Shown: positions 2,706 to 22,330 of the stretch, piece by piece | Layout: each line of letters begins with the position of its first letter | Numbering within the stretch: position 1 is the stretch's first letter | Source of the DNA: a virus | Taxonomy: Duplodnaviria > Caudoviricetes | Strand: one strand, 5' to 3' | Virus record (IMG/VR): IMGVR_UViG_3300025818_000181 | Coordinates: 1-24,360 of that record | Length of the DNA stretch: 24,360 nucleotides | The notes under the pieces: generated by a model | Database searches by the model: none | Told to the model about the DNA's origin: nothing | Seen by the model: the letters and a program-made list of their open reading frames with translations, nothing else | Translations under genes and position numbers: made by a program

Positions 2706-5189
2706 CTATTCAAAAGCCCCCGCTATATCTGGTAGTCGGGATGGAGCGCTATCACCTGGCCCCCACCAATACTCTTGACCAAACTCCCTGCGCGCCCGTG
2801 TTTCTGCCCTGCGCATCTTCGATCTTGCCTTAGGATCAGTCATAAGTTGCAGCTGATCCCAGACCTTACGCTCTAGCGCCAGGCGTGAATACCAAAGAGA
2901 GGATCCTGGCATATAGCGTTGGGTAAACTTAACCAATTCGCCAGCTGCATTTGTATCTTGGCCCGTTGCCGCCTGGTATAAGTTGCCAACAGTTAGCTTT
3001 AAAGTATCATCTGCAAACCCAAAGACAGGCCCAGCGATTGTCTCAGCAAGCCCGCCACCAAAACGGTTTGTTCCCGAATTTAGAAAATCACCGAAGATCC
3101 CAAGGCCACCGCCTTGCATGAATGCCGCAAACCAAAACTTAGCAGTTTCCTCGCCATCGCCAAACATATCGCGCGGATCTCGACCCTTAGACATTTCTTT
3201 TAGTTGCAATGCCAGGGCGCCCATCATCGTCGTAGAAATAAGCAAGTTTGCAAAATATGACGCCTTAGTTGACGATCCTTCTAGCTGCATACCCCGCATC
3301 AAATGCGTATTGACGACCGTTACGCCAAAGTTCTTATACATCGCAAACGACCTGGATATTTCACCAGATACTGTGCCAGGCTGTGTTTCACCCGTTAAGA
3401 ACACACGACCGCGCAATGAATTAGACGGAACCGCGAAGTTTGTTTCCGTATTAATCATTTCCAGGAAGCGGGTAGCTACATCTTCGCGCAGCGCTTCATC
3501 TACATCAGCTCGATCCATCAGATCTGTAGGCCGAATAAACTTAGCCCCACGCTCATCGAATGGATCCGTAGATCTAATAACGTCCCATTGCTCAGATCCG
3601 ATATTGTAACGCTCCATAGTAGATCTAAAGTTTGGATCTAGCTCATCGAACGTTTTGCCCGCATTCCGCGCAACATTTCCCTGGAACTCCATGCCAAACG
3701 CCCAGCGCCCTGCCGAAGTCATAGGCGACAAGAAAGACGCGCGCATTACAAAATCAGATATGCGCCTGGTAACTTCTGGCCCAGACATATCGCCAACAAA
3801 ACGCATTTGCCCAGCTGCCAGGCTAGTCCAGCCTTCTGCAATCAAACCCGAACTAATCGCTAGTTCGCCTTTTTCTTTTGCACCAAGAGGGTTCACGTAA
3901 TCTAGGTATTGCTGCAATGTCCTGGTTTGCGACAATCCAGTAAACTGACGAGCCATACGTTGAAAGTTTAGATCTGTAATTGCTGAGATAGCCGCTGCCC
4001 CCAGCTGTGCCGATTGAAGTAACTGCCTGGTGCCAGCAAAAACTGAGGCAAACCGACCATCGATCGGCGCATTGTTTCTGCCAGTGACAGCTGAATAAAA
4101 CTCATCGATCCGCTTTGCTGTCTTGTTCGCTTTATCAATAAGCTTTGGATCCGCTGTTTCCTGGGCGGGCTTCATTAGCGTTTGTTTAATAAAGTTTGTT
4201 GTTGCAGCTGGGTTTGGCCCCAGGATCTCCATCAATGCAATGTCGCGTGACATATTCTTTACATGCGACACCATTACATCGAATACGTTAGCATCACCAA
4301 ACTGTTGCTGGTATTCCATCCAGCTATCAGCACTCTTGAACGACAAGAACCTGTGATCCTGGCGACGATTGCCCAAGATCTTTCCGCGACCGCCAGATCC
4401 AGGATTAAGCTTGTTAAATCCATCGGACGTTATGGTGTCATAAACATCCTTCAAGGCCATATCCAAGCGCATGTCACTAAATGGCAAGCCAGTTTGCTCA
4501 TCGATCATTTTATTGCGATCGAGGCGCGGCACAATAAATTCGCGCCACTTTTGATAACCAGCTGCCTTGATCTGAAAGCGATCATGGTTTTGCGGCAGAC
4601 CCCAATCCTCACGCTTTGGAACGTTCCCGCCAGCCTTATTAAACTTTTTGCGTAGGGTTTCAGCTGTTGTTTTCCAGGCTTGTGCCATTTCCCTGGCGCT
4701 TACATCACCAGTATTTTCACCAAAGATCTCCCGTGTAAGGTTCTTTAGCTGCGCCTTTTGACGCACCTCGCCGATAAGATTGCGGCGAAACGTACCTAAG
4801 ATTTGGTTCATTTCTGCAAACGCAAAGCCTGTAATCGCTTCTTCACGTTGTGTTACAGCTGAAAACCTGGACATTCCGTCTTGCTCGAACAATGCCAGGG
4901 CAGCTGCGTTAGGATCAGCGCGACCGAAACGGTCTCGATAGTTCTCCAGGTTGTCAGTGATCTGTTGCCATACGCGCATCTGCGTAATTTTTTGCCGCTT
5001 GGCATGAGCCGTTTTATTCACCAGGGCATTGTATGTATCTTGCCCAGCTTCTTCTGCCGCCTGAACAGCGCCCATGCCCTTAGACTTTTCTTCGTAGATC
5101 TCATCGAACAAGTCGCGCGTTTCATTGGCTTGCTCTTTTGTCAGCGTTCCGCTGTTTTCCAGATCATCGATACACTTGCGAAAACTCAT
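2706..5189 (-). CDS. Internal virion (ejection) protein, last of the cluster, T7 gp16 C-terminal position equivalent (827 aa)
   Basis: Last gene before the tail fibre; helical, with Gly-rich hydrophobic C-terminal segments (FMQGGGLGIFGDF, IAGPVFG, YWWGPG). Start moved from GTG 5198 to ATG 5189, which has GAGGTG upstream and an ATGA overlap with the upstream stop. Confidence 0.8.
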   Translation of the reverse strand: MSFRKCIDDLENSGTLTKEQANETRDLFDEIYEEKSKGMGAVQAAEEAGQDTYNALVNKTAHAKRQKITQMRVWQQITDNLENYRDRFGRADPNAAALALFEQDGMSRFSAVTQREEAITGFAFAEMNQILGTFRRNLIGEVRQKAQLKNLTREIFGENTGDVSAREMAQAWKTTAETLRKKFNKAGGNVPKREDWGLPQNHDRFQIKAAGYQKWREFIVPRLDRNKMIDEQTGLPFSDMRLDMALKDVYDTITSDGFNKLNPGSGGRGKILGNRRQDHRFLSFKSADSWMEYQQQFGDANVFDVMVSHVKNMSRDIALMEILGPNPAATTNFIKQTLMKPAQETADPKLIDKANKTAKRIDEFYSAVTGRNNAPIDGRFASVFAGTRQLLQSAQLGAAAISAITDLNFQRMARQFTGLSQTRTLQQYLDYVNPLGAKEKGELAISSGLIAEGWTSLAAGQMRFVGDMSGPEVTRRISDFVMRASFLSPMTSAGRWAFGMEFQGNVARNAGKTFDELDPNFRSTMERYNIGSEQWDVIRSTDPFDERGAKFIRPTDLMDRADVDEALREDVATRFLEMINTETNFAVPSNSLRGRVFLTGETQPGTVSGEISRSFAMYKNFGVTVVNTHLMRGMQLEGSSTKASYFANLLISTTMMGALALQLKEMSKGRDPRDMFGDGEETAKFWFAAFMQGGGLGIFGDFLNSGTNRFGGGLAETIAGPVFGFADDTLKLTVGNLYQAATGQDTNAAGELVKFTQRYMPGSSLWYSRLALERKVWDQLQLMTDPKARSKMRRAETRARREFGQEYWWGPGDSAPSRLPDIAGAFE

Positions 5190-8100
5190 AGTGGACACCT
5201 CGAAATAGCATCAATCATCGCATCGTCCTGGTCTATTTCGTCCAGGAGCTGCCGCGCTGTGACTTTTCTTAAAACTGGCTCTTGCGTAACTTCATCCACT
5301 TCGCCCAACACTTCTAGTGGGAACTCCTCATCTAAGAAGTTTTCGCGGATCTGTGGGATTGCTACGCTTTCAGGGCTTTCAGCCCCCGCTCCAACAGTAG
5401 CTTGCCGATCGCCCCGTCTGACTTCTGGGCCGCTCTCAACTCCATTTCGTCGTAGTCGAAGCTCGACCCCATCGAGGAGGGTTCCTGTTTCGATTGGGAC
5501 GTCTTTGAAATCGTCGCGCCCGCCTTCGTTGTCGATCCTGTAGTAGCCATCTGCTACCCCCTTTTCTCTTAGTGTGTCAAAAGTAATGGCGGGATTATCC
5601 CCCACTTTTTTAACATATTCTGGGTTAATTAATCTACCCGTGTTGATGAAACGACCGATCATCCGTTGCAGTGCTGCCTCGGCGCCGACCTTCATATCTA
5701 CCAACTCAACGTCATATCCCTTTGATTTAAGCAATGAGATTGTGCGCTCAATACTTTCAACCTTGCCGCCAACCTTAGGAATAACCAGGTTATCACCTTC
5801 TTCCATCAAACCTTTGAACAAAAGATCTGACATGAATGAGCTTTCTTCATGTACCGCATTTGCACCAATGCCGCCCTGGTATTCTGGCAAAACCTTCTTT
5901 GCTTCATCCGCATCAACGATCGATGCACCCATCTTGCGCGCGATCGGATTGGCAATCGTACTCTTACCCGCAGCTGGTGGGCCTAGAATAATTACCGCTT
6001 TCTTTTCTTGGCGGGTTGCTCCTGTAGGGAAATCTAAGCCTTCGTCTACCCAGCCTAGCTCTCTTGCGCCTTTTACTAGGTAGCGGAATGCATCATCGAA
6101 TGACGCCTCATTGCTTCCATCTATAATATAACGTCTGTTATCAAACCATTCAATAGCCGCTACATCGTCGCCATCTTTAGGATAACCAGGGCGCTCATTG
6201 GTTAGCGGGATCTCCTCCATGCGGGCTATCGCATCAACGATCGCTGGATGATTAATGATCTGTTCTTCTGGCGCGCCATCATCGACCAGGCGTTTCAGTT
6301 CCTGGCGCTGTATTTGTGGATCTGTCAGATCCTGGCGCAACCCTGCATCGAGAGCGCTCGTCTGGCGTTCCATGCCAGGGCCGAACATATCATCGAACTG
6401 GTTTAGCTCGATTTCCTCTGCATCTGTTCGTATAGTCGGGATTTCTTCTGGAGCATCGAAAGTGCGTCCAACATCGCTAGTTTCTGCGCGGTCAAACTCG
6501 CCATCTGAAATTGCTCGTCTGACATCTTCGAGAAAGCTTCTTGTAGCGGCGTTGTAGTTGCCTGTTTCTTTTGCTTGCCTTGCCGCAGCGGTAAGGGCAT
6601 CTGAGAGGGTTCCCTTACGGTTTGCTTGGCTTTGGAGGAGCGAGATCGCTTTGCCATCGTCGTTAGCCCTTCTTTCATTAGCGTTTTGCGCAAGTTTATT
6701 ACCTTCACCCTCTAATCGAGCCGCGTTAGTAATTAGGTTTTGGAATGCGTTTTTGTCTTTGCGCAGCTGCTTTTGCGCACGATCAAGAACTTTTGCGCGT
6801 TCAGTAAACAAGCTTTGCGTTAAAACTTCTTCACCAAACAAGTTCTCCTGGGTCTCAGTAACCATTTCTGTTTCGCGCACCTGGCGAACAATAGCTTCTG
6901 CCTGGAACTCATTTGCGGGTTCAGTCTTTGCTAAAACATCGAGCGCTGCTTTTTGCATACCAGGATCATCGATCAAACGACCAACGACTGCCGCATGATT
7001 AGGTGCGACAATTTCGTTCTTTACCATGCCCCAGGCATCATCGCCCAAACGTGCCAGGTCATTTGCCTGGCGAACAAATGCAGATTTAGGCGGTAGCTCA
7101 GAGATCCGATCAGGCGCTACGCGCAAGATCTTAGCTGCATCGATCGCAGTGCCTGTGCCTTCCGCAATATTTTTTAACGCTGCAATCACCATTGCATCAT
7201 CAGGCGTAATGCCATCGACTTCGCGCAAACGATACCCGACCATGCGTACATCCTGGCTAGGATCCTGGTCTAAGATACGCTTGGCTAGACCTAAGCGCTG
7301 GTGCCCATCTGCAATAAACAGTTTTCCATCAGCGTATTCATAGATCGTTACCATGCCCGCTTTGATAGGATCCCACTGCGTCACACCTTCTAGGCGGTCA
7401 GTAACACCGTATATGTCGCCGCCTTCTTTGAACTGGAACGTCTTAGCATCTACGCCAATCTCGTTCGGATCAAACTCATCGACCACGCCGCGCAAGTTTG
7501 TTGCTTCATTTATGTTTTCTGGGAGCTGCACCTCAGATCTAGGGGCTTCTGAGATCTTAGGCAATTCACCATCGTTCAATGCGACCGTGGCTTCTTCTAA
7601 CCTGGATTGATGTTCGACCTGGTTTACTGCTTTGTTGCCTAGAGGATTGCTGTCTGTAATAGATTGTGCTGCCTCGTCGAGTAACTCCGCTGCCTCTTGC
7701 CCAGCTGATTTGCGACCCGCTGCATTGCTTATAACCTGGGCGCCACGGCGCACCTGGTCAGCTGTTAGCCTTACAGTTTCTGTCCCGATCTTGATGCCGA
7801 CAGGGAATGCACCACCAATTACGGCAGCTGATCCAACGTTCGCAACAAAATCTTCCCAGGTATAATCTATCCCCAGGCTATCATACCAATCTTTAACGTC
7901 TGGCTGCTGGATCATTTCGACTGTAGCGTTTGTGAACGCTTCACCCGCAACCAGGCCCAGGAAGTTTTTGCCCAGGCGCGCAGTAGGGATAACCATGAAT
8001 GCCTGGTTAATTGGATCCTCGGCACCCGCCCCAAGCATACCCAGAACACGCGCAGTGCCAGGGCCAATCCCAGGAGAGCGCTCTGTCAGCTCGGCAAGCT

Positions 8101-8536
8101 CCCCTTGTTCCTGGTGAAACTTCTCGCGCGCAGCTTCACGCCAGGACTTATCTCGATCTTGATCCAGGACAGAAACAACCAGCTCCTCAGGCAACTGGTC
8201 ACGATTGTCACGCACAAACGTTTCAATATCGTTTGTTTCGTAGCTGTAGCGCGCTGGGCCATAGAACCTGGCGGCTTCACCACTTAGGATTTCAAACACA
8301 TTAGGGCGAATGTACGCGCCAGGGTTTCTGAAAGATTTACCCGTTAATGTTTCGATTTCTTCAACGATTGGATCCCAAGCTTCTTTAATAAACCGCTCCT
8401 CAGAGGATCCGCTTTGCATTAAGTTAGCATCGAAAGACTTAGACAGGTTTTCTACGAAACCGCCTGTCGGTTTACTACGGCGCGGCGTAGTTGCAAACGA
8501 AAGCGGATTTACCTGGTCTGGTAAGTAACTACTCAC
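5186..8536 (-). CDS. Large multidomain internal virion protein with ParB/Srx-like domain and zeta-toxin-like P-loop kinase (1116 aa)
   Basis: Inside the ejection-gene cluster with overlaps on both sides. FIADGHQRLGLA at about aa 407-418; Walker A GPPAAGKST at aa 852-860 (nt 5957-5983) followed by IVDADEAKK, AVHEES and RFINTGRLI. Confidence 0.82.
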   Translation of the reverse strand: MSSYLPDQVNPLSFATTPRRSKPTGGFVENLSKSFDANLMQSGSSEERFIKEAWDPIVEEIETLTGKSFRNPGAYIRPNVFEILSGEAARFYGPARYSYETNDIETFVRDNRDQLPEELVVSVLDQDRDKSWREAAREKFHQEQGELAELTERSPGIGPGTARVLGMLGAGAEDPINQAFMVIPTARLGKNFLGLVAGEAFTNATVEMIQQPDVKDWYDSLGIDYTWEDFVANVGSAAVIGGAFPVGIKIGTETVRLTADQVRRGAQVISNAAGRKSAGQEAAELLDEAAQSITDSNPLGNKAVNQVEHQSRLEEATVALNDGELPKISEAPRSEVQLPENINEATNLRGVVDEFDPNEIGVDAKTFQFKEGGDIYGVTDRLEGVTQWDPIKAGMVTIYEYADGKLFIADGHQRLGLAKRILDQDPSQDVRMVGYRLREVDGITPDDAMVIAALKNIAEGTGTAIDAAKILRVAPDRISELPPKSAFVRQANDLARLGDDAWGMVKNEIVAPNHAAVVGRLIDDPGMQKAALDVLAKTEPANEFQAEAIVRQVRETEMVTETQENLFGEEVLTQSLFTERAKVLDRAQKQLRKDKNAFQNLITNAARLEGEGNKLAQNANERRANDDGKAISLLQSQANRKGTLSDALTAAARQAKETGNYNAATRSFLEDVRRAISDGEFDRAETSDVGRTFDAPEEIPTIRTDAEEIELNQFDDMFGPGMERQTSALDAGLRQDLTDPQIQRQELKRLVDDGAPEEQIINHPAIVDAIARMEEIPLTNERPGYPKDGDDVAAIEWFDNRRYIIDGSNEASFDDAFRYLVKGARELGWVDEGLDFPTGATRQEKKAVIILGPPAAGKSTIANPIARKMGASIVDADEAKKVLPEYQGGIGANAVHEESSFMSDLLFKGLMEEGDNLVIPKVGGKVESIERTISLLKSKGYDVELVDMKVGAEAALQRMIGRFINTGRLINPEYVKKVGDNPAITFDTLREKGVADGYYRIDNEGGRDDFKDVPIETGTLLDGVELRLRRNGVESGPEVRRGDRQATVGAGAESPESVAIPQIRENFLDEEFPLEVLGEVDEVTQEPVLRKVTARQLLDEIDQDDAMIDAISRCPL

Positions 8537-19871: not shown

Positions 19872-21146
19872 CTATGCTGCAAAAGGATTGTAATCATTCA
19901 TCGCTTGTTTCTGAGGAACCTGGATACGGTTCCCGCTTTCTCGCAAACCAACCGCCAAATACCTAAAAGCATCCGCTGCGTGGCTCGACCAATCGTGTAC
20001 AGGTGACGCCCTAAAGCTTCTAGTGCGCTCGTTATACGCCCTGTGATACTGTCGTAGACATTCCAAGCCATGTTTACACTTCTCTCTATCAAACCATAAA
20101 CGCGGAATAAGCATCTGCGCGGCATGGATACCATCCTCGATCGGCAACTTCGGAACAACCCGAAAGTTCAAACCAAGATCCCACGCAATCTCGCGTCTAC
20201 TTTTTCCAGTACCCAACTCCCGCACCTCAATATCGTGGGGTGCATTGTGTTCACCGTAGAGGTAATTCTTAGAAGAAAGTACCTTACAATAGTGAGGTAG
20301 TCCTTCGCCCCGTGCCTCGTAGTAATCAATCACATGCACAGCGCGCCCAACCGTCTGGGTGAAAAATATGCTAGTGCTATCTCCAACTCCGAGATCCCAC
20401 CAGGTGTCAACCCGAACTGAGGGGTCGTAGGGTACGTTGGTAATCCTACCATCCGCACTCGCTTCCTCCAGCTCCTTGCCATAGACCGCACCAGGCACAT
20501 TCGCATTCCAGCTGCACTCAAATTCCTGAGCATACTGATCCGCTGTCATCATCGCCTGGGCAGCTTCCAATTCCTCATCATCAAGCAATCCAGTTTCCGA
20601 AGCCTTATAGATCGCACATAGCCAATCATCATTCCCAGCAGCTTCCTCATATTTTTCATAGAAAGCATTGTGACCCTTAGGCGTACCAATGAAACAACAC
20701 CACCCCTTGCGATCCGAAAGCGCGGGCCTCAAGATCTCAGGAAACACATTCTCAGGCATGTCGGCAACCTCGTCCATCACACACCCGTCCAGGTAAATCC
20801 CACGCAAGCTATCTGGATTCTCCGCACCGAGTAGCGAGATCCTCGCACCAGTAGGCAGATCACACCGCAATTCAGTCTCATGGAACTTAACGCCAGGGAT
20901 CTTGCCAGCGAACTGTTTTATATAATCCCAGGCAACGTTCTTTGCCTGGCGATACGTGGGGGCCATATACGCAAGCCTGGGGTTCGGCTTATCGCACATT
21001 AACGCAGATCTCAAAATATGATTGATCGCCCAAACCGTCTTGCCAAAACGGCGGTGACACACAACTACACCCCAGCGCTTCTCTTGCATCTCATTATGCA
21101 ACTTCAGCTGTAGCTCTCTAGGCTCATACGGTATCTCAATATGCAT
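19872..21146 (-). CDS. terL: Terminase large subunit (424 aa)
   Basis: VVCHRRFGKT (Walker A), YMAPTYRQAK, GCVMDE (Walker B), IGTPKG, WDLG and HDWSSHAADAFRY nuclease motifs. Confidence 0.96.
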   Translation of the reverse strand: MHIEIPYEPRELQLKLHNEMQEKRWGVVVCHRRFGKTVWAINHILRSALMCDKPNPRLAYMAPTYRQAKNVAWDYIKQFAGKIPGVKFHETELRCDLPTGARISLLGAENPDSLRGIYLDGCVMDEVADMPENVFPEILRPALSDRKGWCCFIGTPKGHNAFYEKYEEAAGNDDWLCAIYKASETGLLDDEELEAAQAMMTADQYAQEFECSWNANVPGAVYGKELEEASADGRITNVPYDPSVRVDTWWDLGVGDSTSIFFTQTVGRAVHVIDYYEARGEGLPHYCKVLSSKNYLYGEHNAPHDIEVRELGTGKSRREIAWDLGLNFRVVPKLPIEDGIHAAQMLIPRLWFDREKCKHGLECLRQYHRAYNERTRSFRASPVHDWSSHAADAFRYLAVGLRESGNRIQVPQKQAMNDYNPFAA

Positions 21147-21319
21147 CAGTGCTTGCTCTCATCGTCAAACTTCAAAAGACCTATGTTCGTCAACATCTGC
21201 TCATAAACATCTATCAGCAGTACAGCTGCCTCATACTGCGTAGTCGCTGAGGAGCCTTCTACGACCATCCTACGCAATTCGTTAATGTGACCTAGCAAGG
21301 CGGTGTTTTCGGCTTTCAT
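21146..21319 (-). CDS. Small hypothetical protein (57 aa; below ORF-track cutoff)
   Basis: Own translation MKAENTALLGHINELRRMVVEG...LLKFDDESKH; its TGA overlaps the terL ATG (TGATG). Confidence 0.65.
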   Translation of the reverse strand: MKAENTALLGHINELRRMVVEGSSATTQYEAAVLLIDVYEQMLTNIGLLKFDDESKH

Positions 21320-21425
21320 AGGCTCTCTCAGGCTGTGTGAGGGGCAGATACTATAGGTCAGGTATATTATGGCTTACGAGGCGGCGGGCGGTTTCGCGGA
21401 GGGTGGGGGTCGGCAGGTCGCAGAA

Positions 21426-21453
21426 ATTTAACATAATTCACATTATCGGATAA
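21426..21453 (-). other. dif: dif-like XerC/XerD recombination site
   Basis: Minus strand TTATCCGATAA-TGTGAA-TTATGTTAAAT; 11-6-11 layout; XerD arm identical to E. coli dif; 21/28 overall; intergenic. Confidence 0.8.
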
Positions 21454-21602
21454 TCTTATCGAGCAAAAACAATAACTTAGCCAGCTATGCGGATTATGCA
21501 TGGATCGAGCTGTGATTTTGCCATGCGCTTGCTGCATATCACGGGCTATTTCTGCCCTTCGCGCGCGTAGCTCGGTCACGCTGGATGTATGGTCTCACTC
21601 TC

Positions 21603-22052
21603 CTAGTGCCGAACCAGAACGTCTTGCTCCTCCTCCTCATTGGCATTCACTGCCACATCTCCACCAGCCCAGCTGATCGTGATAGCTGTGTTTGTTGGCT
21701 GATCTTCTTTCTTGTCTCGGATCCCAAATGGCTGGTTACGCGCAGCTGTCCACTTGAGTGTCTCGATCTCCAGGCGTCTGCGTTGCACCTCTGCATTGAG
21801 CATACGCGGATCTTCGACCTTTGGCAGCTCTGCCATTGCTAACCCGTTCAGATGGTCTGCGTACCACTCGGCCTGTAGTATGCGCGCCTTGCGGTACATC
21901 TCCCAAATGATCTCATCTGCCTGGACTGCGCGCGTGACGCTGCGATAGCTTGGCATACCTTTGGTCTTTGTGATGTCCATCAGTGTCTCGCCCTCAGCAA
22001 GACGATCGCAGATCTTCTGCATTATCTCGACGGTGACGGTTTTACTAATCAT
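21603..22052 (-). CDS. terS: Terminase small subunit (149 aa), Sf6/P22-like
   Basis: ICDRLAEGETLMDI...MPSYRSV HTH, YRKAR and RLEIETLKWTAAR..P; upstream of terL. Confidence 0.85.
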   Translation of the reverse strand: MISKTVTVEIMQKICDRLAEGETLMDITKTKGMPSYRSVTRAVQADEIIWEMYRKARILQAEWYADHLNGLAMAELPKVEDPRMLNAEVQRRRLEIETLKWTAARNQPFGIRDKKEDQPTNTAITISWAGGDVAVNANEEEEQDVLVRH

Positions 22053-22065
22053 GGTTATTCCTATG

Positions 22066-22110
22066 AAAAAGCCCCAGCTGTTTCAGTGCGAGACCTAGAA
22101 CAGCCAGGGC
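22066..22110 (-). terminator. Putative intrinsic terminator/attenuator immediately upstream of terS
   Basis: Minus strand GCCCTGGCTGTT-16 nt-AACAGCTGGGGC-TTTTT (12-bp stem, 2 G-U), ending 13 nt before the terS ATG. Confidence 0.6.
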
Positions 22111-22175
22111 GAGTTTGAGGCATAATCGCACACAGGCTAGATGGTGCAAAAATGATAAAGACACAACATCTTGCG

Positions 22176-22215
22176 ATTATACCATAAATCTACGTCATTT
22201 CGGTATTTTAAGCAA
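22176..22215 (-). promoter_or_regulatory. Putative late promoter with second -10-like element
   Basis: TTGCTT (22215-22210), 17 bp, TAGATT (22192-22187), then TATGG and TATAAT (22181-22176). Confidence 0.6.
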
Positions 22216-22243
22216 TAGATATATATTTTTTTACATTTACCCC

Positions 22244-22272
22244 TTGACAGTATCTGTCTCATGCTTTAAGTA
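22244..22272 (+). promoter_or_regulatory. Sigma70-like promoter P1 with overlapping palindromic operator
   Basis: TTGACA-17 bp-TAAGTA; palindrome GACAG-TAT-CTGTC at 22246-22258; AT-rich tract upstream. Confidence 0.72.
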
Positions 22273-22330
22273 AGGTCATGTGGTTGAGCGTTGCTCCCAC
22301 GATTTTCCCAACCAACTACGGAGTTCGATC

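Follow-up and report, generated by a model that had tools for sequence, protein, structure and literature searches.

Phage P1 cyclises its terminally redundant DNA through the action of Cre at loxP; it encodes this recombinase itself and is a plasmid prophage. At the dif site of bacterial chromosomes, it is XerC and XerD that act, resolving chromosome dimers. A chromosomal dif lies at the replication terminus, between converging KOPS. Recombination there by XerCD normally requires FtsK, according to the available text of PMC9226527. IMEXs (CTXphi, VGJphi, TLCphi, the GGI and the gokushovirus EC6098) carry a dif-like site but no integrase of their own. The portions of PMC5357621, PMC7062461 and PMC9226527 at hand describe them as small ssDNA phages, satellites or islands that integrate at host dif. 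Finally, the plasmid sites cer, psi and Acinetobacter pdif recombine with themselves, have a spacer unlike that of the chromosome and adjoin a site for an accessory protein.

Here we analyse a dif-type site found in a viral DNA stretch of 24,360 nucleotides, hereafter the window. This 24-kb fragment derives from a podovirus related to the HTVC010P-type pelagiphages (TerL identity 58%) and has a G+C content of 50%. The metagenome runs in which its sequence was found carry the labels freshwater, aquatic and marine, and its source is a marine or brackish podovirus. A search of cultured phages with TerS and the gap around the site returned no close isolate.

How does this locus compare? It resembles chromosomal dif in its 11-6-11 layout, its E. 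coli XerD arm, its ATAA/TTAT symmetry, its intergenic and AT-rich setting and its single copy. It departs from chromosomal dif in lying on a phage, away from any replication terminus with converging KOPS and FtsK activation, with a hypervariable spacer, a free orientation, no KOPS polarity and a putative position in a terminal repeat. If our preferred reading holds, the site is like loxP of P1 in being a tyrosine-recombinase site near the packaging start that is duplicated on virion DNA. Such duplication in a terminal redundancy is present in Vequintavirinae records, and contig ends point to it in the window's family. Unlike in P1, the enzyme would be host XerCD; we found neither a phage-encoded recombinase nor a ParA gene. 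With the IMEXs the phage shares a phage-borne dif-like site and the lack of an integrase, but it is a 34-kb tailed phage in which PF09397 detected no XafT/FtsK-gamma-like gene, no junction was found, and its centres are not homologous to one fixed host dif centre (30 spacers in 42 sites). With cer, psi and pdif it shares self-self recombination, as we read it, a non-chromosomal spacer and perhaps an adjoining accessory site. That candidate accessory site is IHF-like, rather than of the PepA, ArgR or ArcA kind; the phage looks lytic, the site is tied to a genome end, and the partition genes of a plasmid-kept replicon were not seen (PF13614 ParA in 0 of 5 near-complete genomes).

Two groups of tailed phages are also close. 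The Vequintavirinae (rV5-like phages, Mydovirus, Certrevirus) also combine host-type arms with an altered spacer, and their site lies inside a terminal repeat of 459-514 bp; they are, however, 140-kb enterobacterial myoviruses whose repeat is not beside the terminase genes. The HTVC010P-type pelagiphages (PMC8477408) and phiM5 are the closest cultured TerL relatives (58%) and share the small ORF, the C-run and the AT element described below, but they have no canonical dif, and an integrase gene of their own is present in phiM5 and in pelagiphages of subgroup II. We found no description of dif at tailed-phage termini in the literature searched (few subscription papers, no supplements), and the term Xer is absent from the available text of the HTVC010P-type paper (PMC8477408) and of the BASEL paper. 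What is new here is the extension of terminal dif to the abundant HTVC010P-like family, where contig ends tie the terS-terL site to a genome end, and the turnover of spacer and orientation in the terS-terL dif of this family.

The dif-type site and its conservation

The initial annotation had placed the site between terS and terL. It does lie in a non-coding gap of 283 bp (21320-21602), but this gap is bounded by terS and by a 57-codon ORF, which intervenes before terL and overlaps its start (Table 1). The minus strand of the window also encodes the portal, capsid, tail and internal virion genes.

Table 1. Features of the terS-terL region, in window coordinates
Feature	Position	Strand	Remarks
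terS, Sf6-type small terminase subunit, 149 aa	21603..22052	-	PF20901; phrog_1482
Putative terminal repeat or redundancy, about 360-540 bp, deduced from relatives	21365..21900		left edge within 21720-21905
Motif A (CG motif; ACATCC..GCTACGCGCGCG), just past terS stop	21558..21588	-	22-gap alignment; 61 IMG/VR loci by pattern
IHF-consensus-like site, 1 mismatch, 13 bp from XerC arm	21467..21479	+	
dif-type site, TTATCCGATAA-TGTGAA-TTATGTTAAAT	21426..21453	-	
XerC-type arm, TTATCCGATAA	21443..21453	-	
6-bp spacer, TGTGAA	21437..21442	-	varies freely in family except last base
XerD-type arm, TTATGTTAAAT	21426..21436	-	same as E. coli and many gamma/beta-proteobacterial dif
C-run (motif B; CCCCCACCCTCC), then GC stretch	21398..21409	-	conserved in family, pelagiphages and unrelated phages
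AT element (CCATAATATACC)	21361..21375	-	coincides with putative right physical end
57-aa ORF without family match	21146..21319	-	position before terL conserved; same position in HTVC010P-type phages
terL, large terminase, 424 aa	19872..21146	-	58% identity to HTVC010P-type pelagiphages

Its core is that of a dif: arms of 11 bp flank a 6-bp centre, and their inner bases show dyad symmetry. Comparison with E. coli dif (PMC2731167, Table 1) confirmed the perfect XerD arm (11/11), the ATAA/TTAT symmetry and the 6-bp spacer that had been claimed for it. The XerC arm agrees at 5 of 11 positions, keeping the inner ATAA bases, and the spacer at 4 of 6. Even with 2 mismatches allowed, this is the single match in the window, against a chance mean of 0.06, and 6 of 100 shuffles gave one. 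It is the conservation among relatives, and not the single match, that puts the site far beyond chance. Judged by sequence, it is a real, conserved XerC/XerD-type dif, and it is probably functional.

The comparison of dif sequences had also been expected to predict the host. We ran it and no single host came out: the XerD arm is common to many gamma- and beta-proteobacteria, and the XerC arm is closest to that of dif on Rhodobacter sphaeroides chromosome 2. The dif pattern matched in 124 of 401 alphaproteobacterial genomes, a yield near the reversed-pattern background in AT-rich genomes, and singled out no host.

Conservation in the terS-terL gap, in turn, was borne out. Among the 80 best of 513 IMG/VR TerL matches (78-100% identity), the site is present in the gap in 73, at 290-365 bp before terL; the other 7 all miss the upstream DNA, and one of them has the site at its opposite contig end. 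To avoid circularity, a second set was built from a terS pattern without using dif: its 80 full loci, minus 1 incomplete and 8 without a located C-run (6 of these truncated), left 71, and 70 of them hold the site. Scans with motif A and motif B recovered it in 56/61 and 36/41 loci; the misses were 4 variant sites, 4 loci from one dif-less clade, 1 truncated locus and 1 unrelated locus. None of these counts stands for as many independent genomes, because many loci are near-copies or are repeated between collections. The dif-less clade (L495, L498, L518, L524, L592) keeps motif A and the C-run; no integrase was seen in its partial records (16-45% complete). Since both this clade and phiM5 lack it, dif must be dispensable. 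In a few other loci (L362/L400, L369, L379, L391), 300-500 extra bases separate terS from motif A, possibly inserted small genes.

Some features elsewhere in the window deserve mention. Between terS and the early small ORFs lies a divergent, AT-rich intergenic stretch (22053-22279) with a TTGACA hexamer at about 22245, which likely holds the early and late promoters; sigma-70 promoters in the gap region showed no excess (5 found, 5.4 expected). The 1116-aa internal virion protein encoded at 5186-8536 (minus strand) includes a P-loop kinase domain resembling that of zeta toxins (PF06414, residues 841-1001, E 1e-17); its counterparts in two relatives gave no such hit. The domain is possibly an injected kinase targeting the bacterial host.

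The gap module and the putative genome end

The elements of the gap keep one order: the terS stop is followed by motif A, then by a variable stretch holding the IHF-like site and dif, and last by the C-run, the AT element and the small ORF. Motif A is likely an end-processing or replication signal, and a CG motif resembling it is present in unrelated phages. A match to what we take to be the IHF consensus (at most 1 mismatch) occurs in 40 of 78 assessable gaps, compared with 6.2 expected from shuffles; 15 of the 93 gaps were too short and were left out. Most of these matches stand at a fixed distance from dif, 13-14 or 19 bp, and the IHF-like site could be an accessory site. The C-run appears to mark the genome end. 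The module order recurs in unrelated phages, with several full modules in IMG/VR and another in the deposited phage C72C1. From about 3200 stretches of IMG/VR matching the dif pattern, we sampled 80 loci at random, of which 52 passed the filter and 46 were scanned for neighbours; 13 of these 46 adjoin a terminase gene, a count that comes without a chance control.

The gap is probably the genome end, a point that the first reading overlooked. The contig ends of relatives, together with phiM5, place the right physical end of the packaged genome at about 21364-21375. A direct terminal repeat of 357 bp is annotated in Sinorhizobium phage phiM5, where it begins 68 bp into the ORF preceding terL; its right end, just before terL, reads ATATATC and is 43 bases from the C-run start. 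Eight distinct contigs of relatives stop at the AT element, 34-51 bp beyond the C-run. The motif scans gave 25 distinct contig ends on the terS side, and 7 of them lie in this interval (+34..+51); so do 4 of the 15 ends of the terS-anchored set, where 0.30 were expected (P = 2.5e-4). That P value is optimistic, because the counting interval of +30..+55 was set after the first such ends had been seen and 3 of the 4 ends are contigs that suggested it. As contigs end after the C-run where the right end of phiM5 is annotated, dif would lie about 50-90 bp inside the genome end.

Most contigs cross this region unbroken. Those on the terL side pass through it and none of 80 starts there, which fits a redundancy and neither a cos cut nor a sequencing drop-out. 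The left edge is diffuse, as 12 terL-side contigs begin at points scattered 34-424 bp upstream of the C-run. Nine terL-side contigs have their first base inside terS, between codons 50 and 111. The repeat thus probably reaches past dif into terS, whose 3' half would be inside it, and dif would be duplicated on the virion DNA of the window's phage. With a TerS of the Sf6 type, processive headful packaging is possible, and dif would then be duplicated in the first headful only.

Several other apparent repeats were set aside. The occurrence of dif at both ends of contig L148/L196 (127-bp overlap) and the 125-bp 'terminal repeat' inside terL of the Skadi phages (available text of PMC10504331) are likely assembler overlaps, as is a 55-bp repeat of phage OH, which was not used. 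What phage nomo has annotated as 'repeat_region' is local and 34 bp long, and is no end repeat.

Sites in other phages and turnover of the spacer

A query containing dif matched 404 phage records, many of them Vequintavirinae. The rV5-like phage EmilHeitz has both E. coli arms around the spacer TGGGTA. In Klebsiella phage DP, dif is at 274-301 of a 514-bp repeat present at both ends; in EdH4, it is at 170-197 of a 459-bp end repeat. In KPP-1 the match (116518-116568) falls inside the repeat 116316-116829, which was mapped by PhageTerm in a phage presented as strictly lytic in the available text of PMC9862379. PhageTerm has also called one rV5-like isolate headful/pac (PMC13211470, as far as its available text goes). 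More widely, a dif close to that of E. coli but with a changed spacer is present in lytic phages of the rV5-like, Mydovirus, Certrevirus and Seunavirus groups (Vequintavirinae records L417 274-301, L419 2508-2535, L421 170-197). In Escherichia phage Seurat (L420 2503-2550) an intergenic dif is followed by an IHF-like site, an arrangement shared by further Seurat-like phages, among them VogelGryff and WildeMaa.

Canonical dif was found in the equivalent gap of 0 of 6 HTVC010P-type pelagiphages, and none was found near the terminase of Ralstonia phage GP4, phiM5 or two Manatee Spring phages. The pelagiphage host P. ubique is reported to be without a dif/Xer system (available text of PMC2731167). 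As a negative control the pelagiphages are blurred, because 5 of the 6 (L085, L086, L094, L095, L096) have at the equivalent place, 60-130 bp before the C-run, a palindrome [GA]TAA-N6/7-TTAT with a 6-7-bp centre. It is perhaps a site for another, single recombinase; the AT-rich DNA makes chance possible.

We also noted some sites of other kinds. Low-GC viral contigs (L172/L173, L204/L205) hold two dif-pattern matches about 2 kb apart, like pdif modules. An enterobacterial-type phage (L135 2440-2700) has a dif-like site with cer/psi-like flanks between terL and portal. An unrelated phage present in the same runs as the window (L109, about 2480-2550) shares with positions 21425-21473 some 48 bp that include the IHF-like site and dif, possibly by cassette exchange or through a common host. 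An abundant contig in two runs that matches 21425-21473 and then diverges looked like a junction, but was rejected as an attL or attR because its loose ends match this same phage.

The spacer is the part of the site that changes. In 42 distinct 28-mers, whose arms are partly fixed by the search pattern, we counted 30 spacers; the canonical TGTATA occurs once. The last base, which adjoins the XerD arm, is A in 41 of 42, kept as in chromosomal dif. TGTGAA, GGTGAA and GGTCTA all occur in phages with 100% identical TerS, and on a quick IQ-TREE TerL tree (51 rows) single tight clades contain up to five spacers. Orientation changes 6 times on this tree, at least 2 of the changes being forced on well-supported branches, and the distance from dif to the C-run varies from 15 to 140 bp in the family. 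A free spacer of this kind suits a site whose recombination partner is its own copy, not one that must pair with one host dif. In the gokushoviruses that integrate, phage-side dif spacers vary too, according to the portion of PMC7062461 at hand.

What the site may do

To explain these results we propose that the terminal repeat supplies two identical dif copies through which host XerCD closes the injected genome into a circle, a reading to which we give an even chance. With dif in the repeat, each linear phage chromosome would carry two identical copies, and host XerCD would join them, making the injected DNA circular. Strand exchange would begin with XerC, with IHF bending the DNA as an aid. 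The Holliday junction could then be completed by replication or by the phage's own resolvase, and genes for such resolvases are present in both annotated relatives. Later, the same site could resolve circular dimers. The spacer may drift because the partner sites copy one sequence, so that it always matches itself; a spacer unlike that of the host would also disfavour full exchange with chromosomal dif. The XerC-first, FtsK-independent route is likely because there is no KOPS bias (0 KOPS in the window, 0-3 per genome in 8 relatives, no polarity) and no FtsK-gamma gene. No XerCD activator was found in the window's phage family. Such a route is known from IMEXs and ColE1 (PMC9226527 and PMC5357621, in their available text).

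The initial annotation had held that the phage either integrates without its own integrase or resolves circular multimers. Of these halves, the one in which the site acts on the phage's own DNA is favoured. Integration at host dif through XerCD, with terS split from terL until excision, is improbable. It does agree with the lack of an integrase, a claim that stood (PF00589 gave no hit in any of 20 relative records, of which 12 are at least 90% complete), and it is what filamentous phages and gokushoviruses do, the latter with variable phage-side spacers as noted. Contig G408 (L270) even has the final base of the XerD arm as its position 1, which is either an assembly break or a true junction. 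Against this, spacers change among near-identical phages that should share a host, and TGTATA is all but missing. A search with dif plus the downstream C-run, a pattern able to catch host-phage joints, gave 33 IMG/VR and 31 metagenome loci. Two have no upstream DNA; terS is upstream in 61 of the other 62, and the exception, L399, has the same module but is phage-like DNA of unrelated origin. No host junction appeared in these 62 contigs, and contigs from 4 of 4 runs span the site without a joint, which speaks against the proposed separation of terS from terL. Nor did a close prophage turn up: a GTDB scan with TerL gave 4 loci (36-60% identity), and of the 119 portal loci present in 109 of 401 alphaproteobacterial genomes 40 were inspected; all were too distant, with no dif near terL. 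The 5 near-complete genomes have no serine recombinase, ParA (PF13614) or FtsK-gamma (PF09397), no repressor family was seen among 42 ORFs of two relatives, and the same site occurs in phages presented as strictly lytic (available text of PMC9862379). The absence of junctions and prophages weighs little, since the host may be uncultured or its genomes unsampled. Taken together, the free spacer, the flipping orientation and the lack of a junction, integrase or prophage make integration unlikely. Still less credible is a decoy, in which many phage copies titrate XerCD and so block chromosome segregation or division in the host: a near-perfect XerD arm on a replicating lytic genome would suit it, but titration needs neither a single site per genome nor strict positional conservation.

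Lytic phages need concatemers for packaging, and this counts against the idea that XerCD acts as at cer and psi, resolving or decatenating replicating phage circles, with the gap as merely free non-coding space. Self-self recombination of any kind would fit the free spacer, the two orientations, the single strong site in each genome and the IHF-like site, and cer and psi do use accessory proteins without FtsK (available text of PMC5357621). We nevertheless find this unlikely: it leaves unexplained why dif stays beside the end module in the window's family, why 13 of the 46 IMG/VR loci lie beside a terminase gene (again without chance control) and why Vequintavirinae have dif in an end repeat far from their terminase genes; nor is there a ParA or another sign of a plasmid prophage. 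Unlikely, too, is binding without strand exchange, in which XerCD and IHF near the end would position the terminase (compare IHF at lambda cos), shield the end or stop FtsK. The fixed spacing to the IHF-like site and the end motif speaks for it, as does a spacer that is free in sequence yet fixed at 6 bp, which suits cooperative binding. That FtsK is stopped at XerCD-dif is known (PMC2800217, in its available text). An element that positions terminase, however, would poorly tolerate the changes in orientation and C-run distance, and the conserved base beside the XerD arm is kept in chromosomal dif as well.

If host XerCD does circularise the injected genome from its terminal repeat, lytic tailed phages would join the elements that exploit XerCD, in a non-integrative mode. 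How short-terminal-repeat phages close or concatemerise injected DNA is unsettled for most families. We envision, more tentatively and with clearly less than even confidence, that many unrelated lytic tailed phages use host XerCD as their Cre, IHF-assisted and FtsK-independent, with the changing spacer as a self/non-self code. Such a code would block both integration at host dif and fusion with other phages. The carriage of dif alone is in any case poor ground for calling a phage temperate, and the module of CG motif, IHF-like site, dif, C-run and AT element flags genome ends of uncultured phages. If the broader view is true, xerC and xerD would be host factors of lytic infection, from marine HTVC010P-like podoviruses to rV5-like coliphages.
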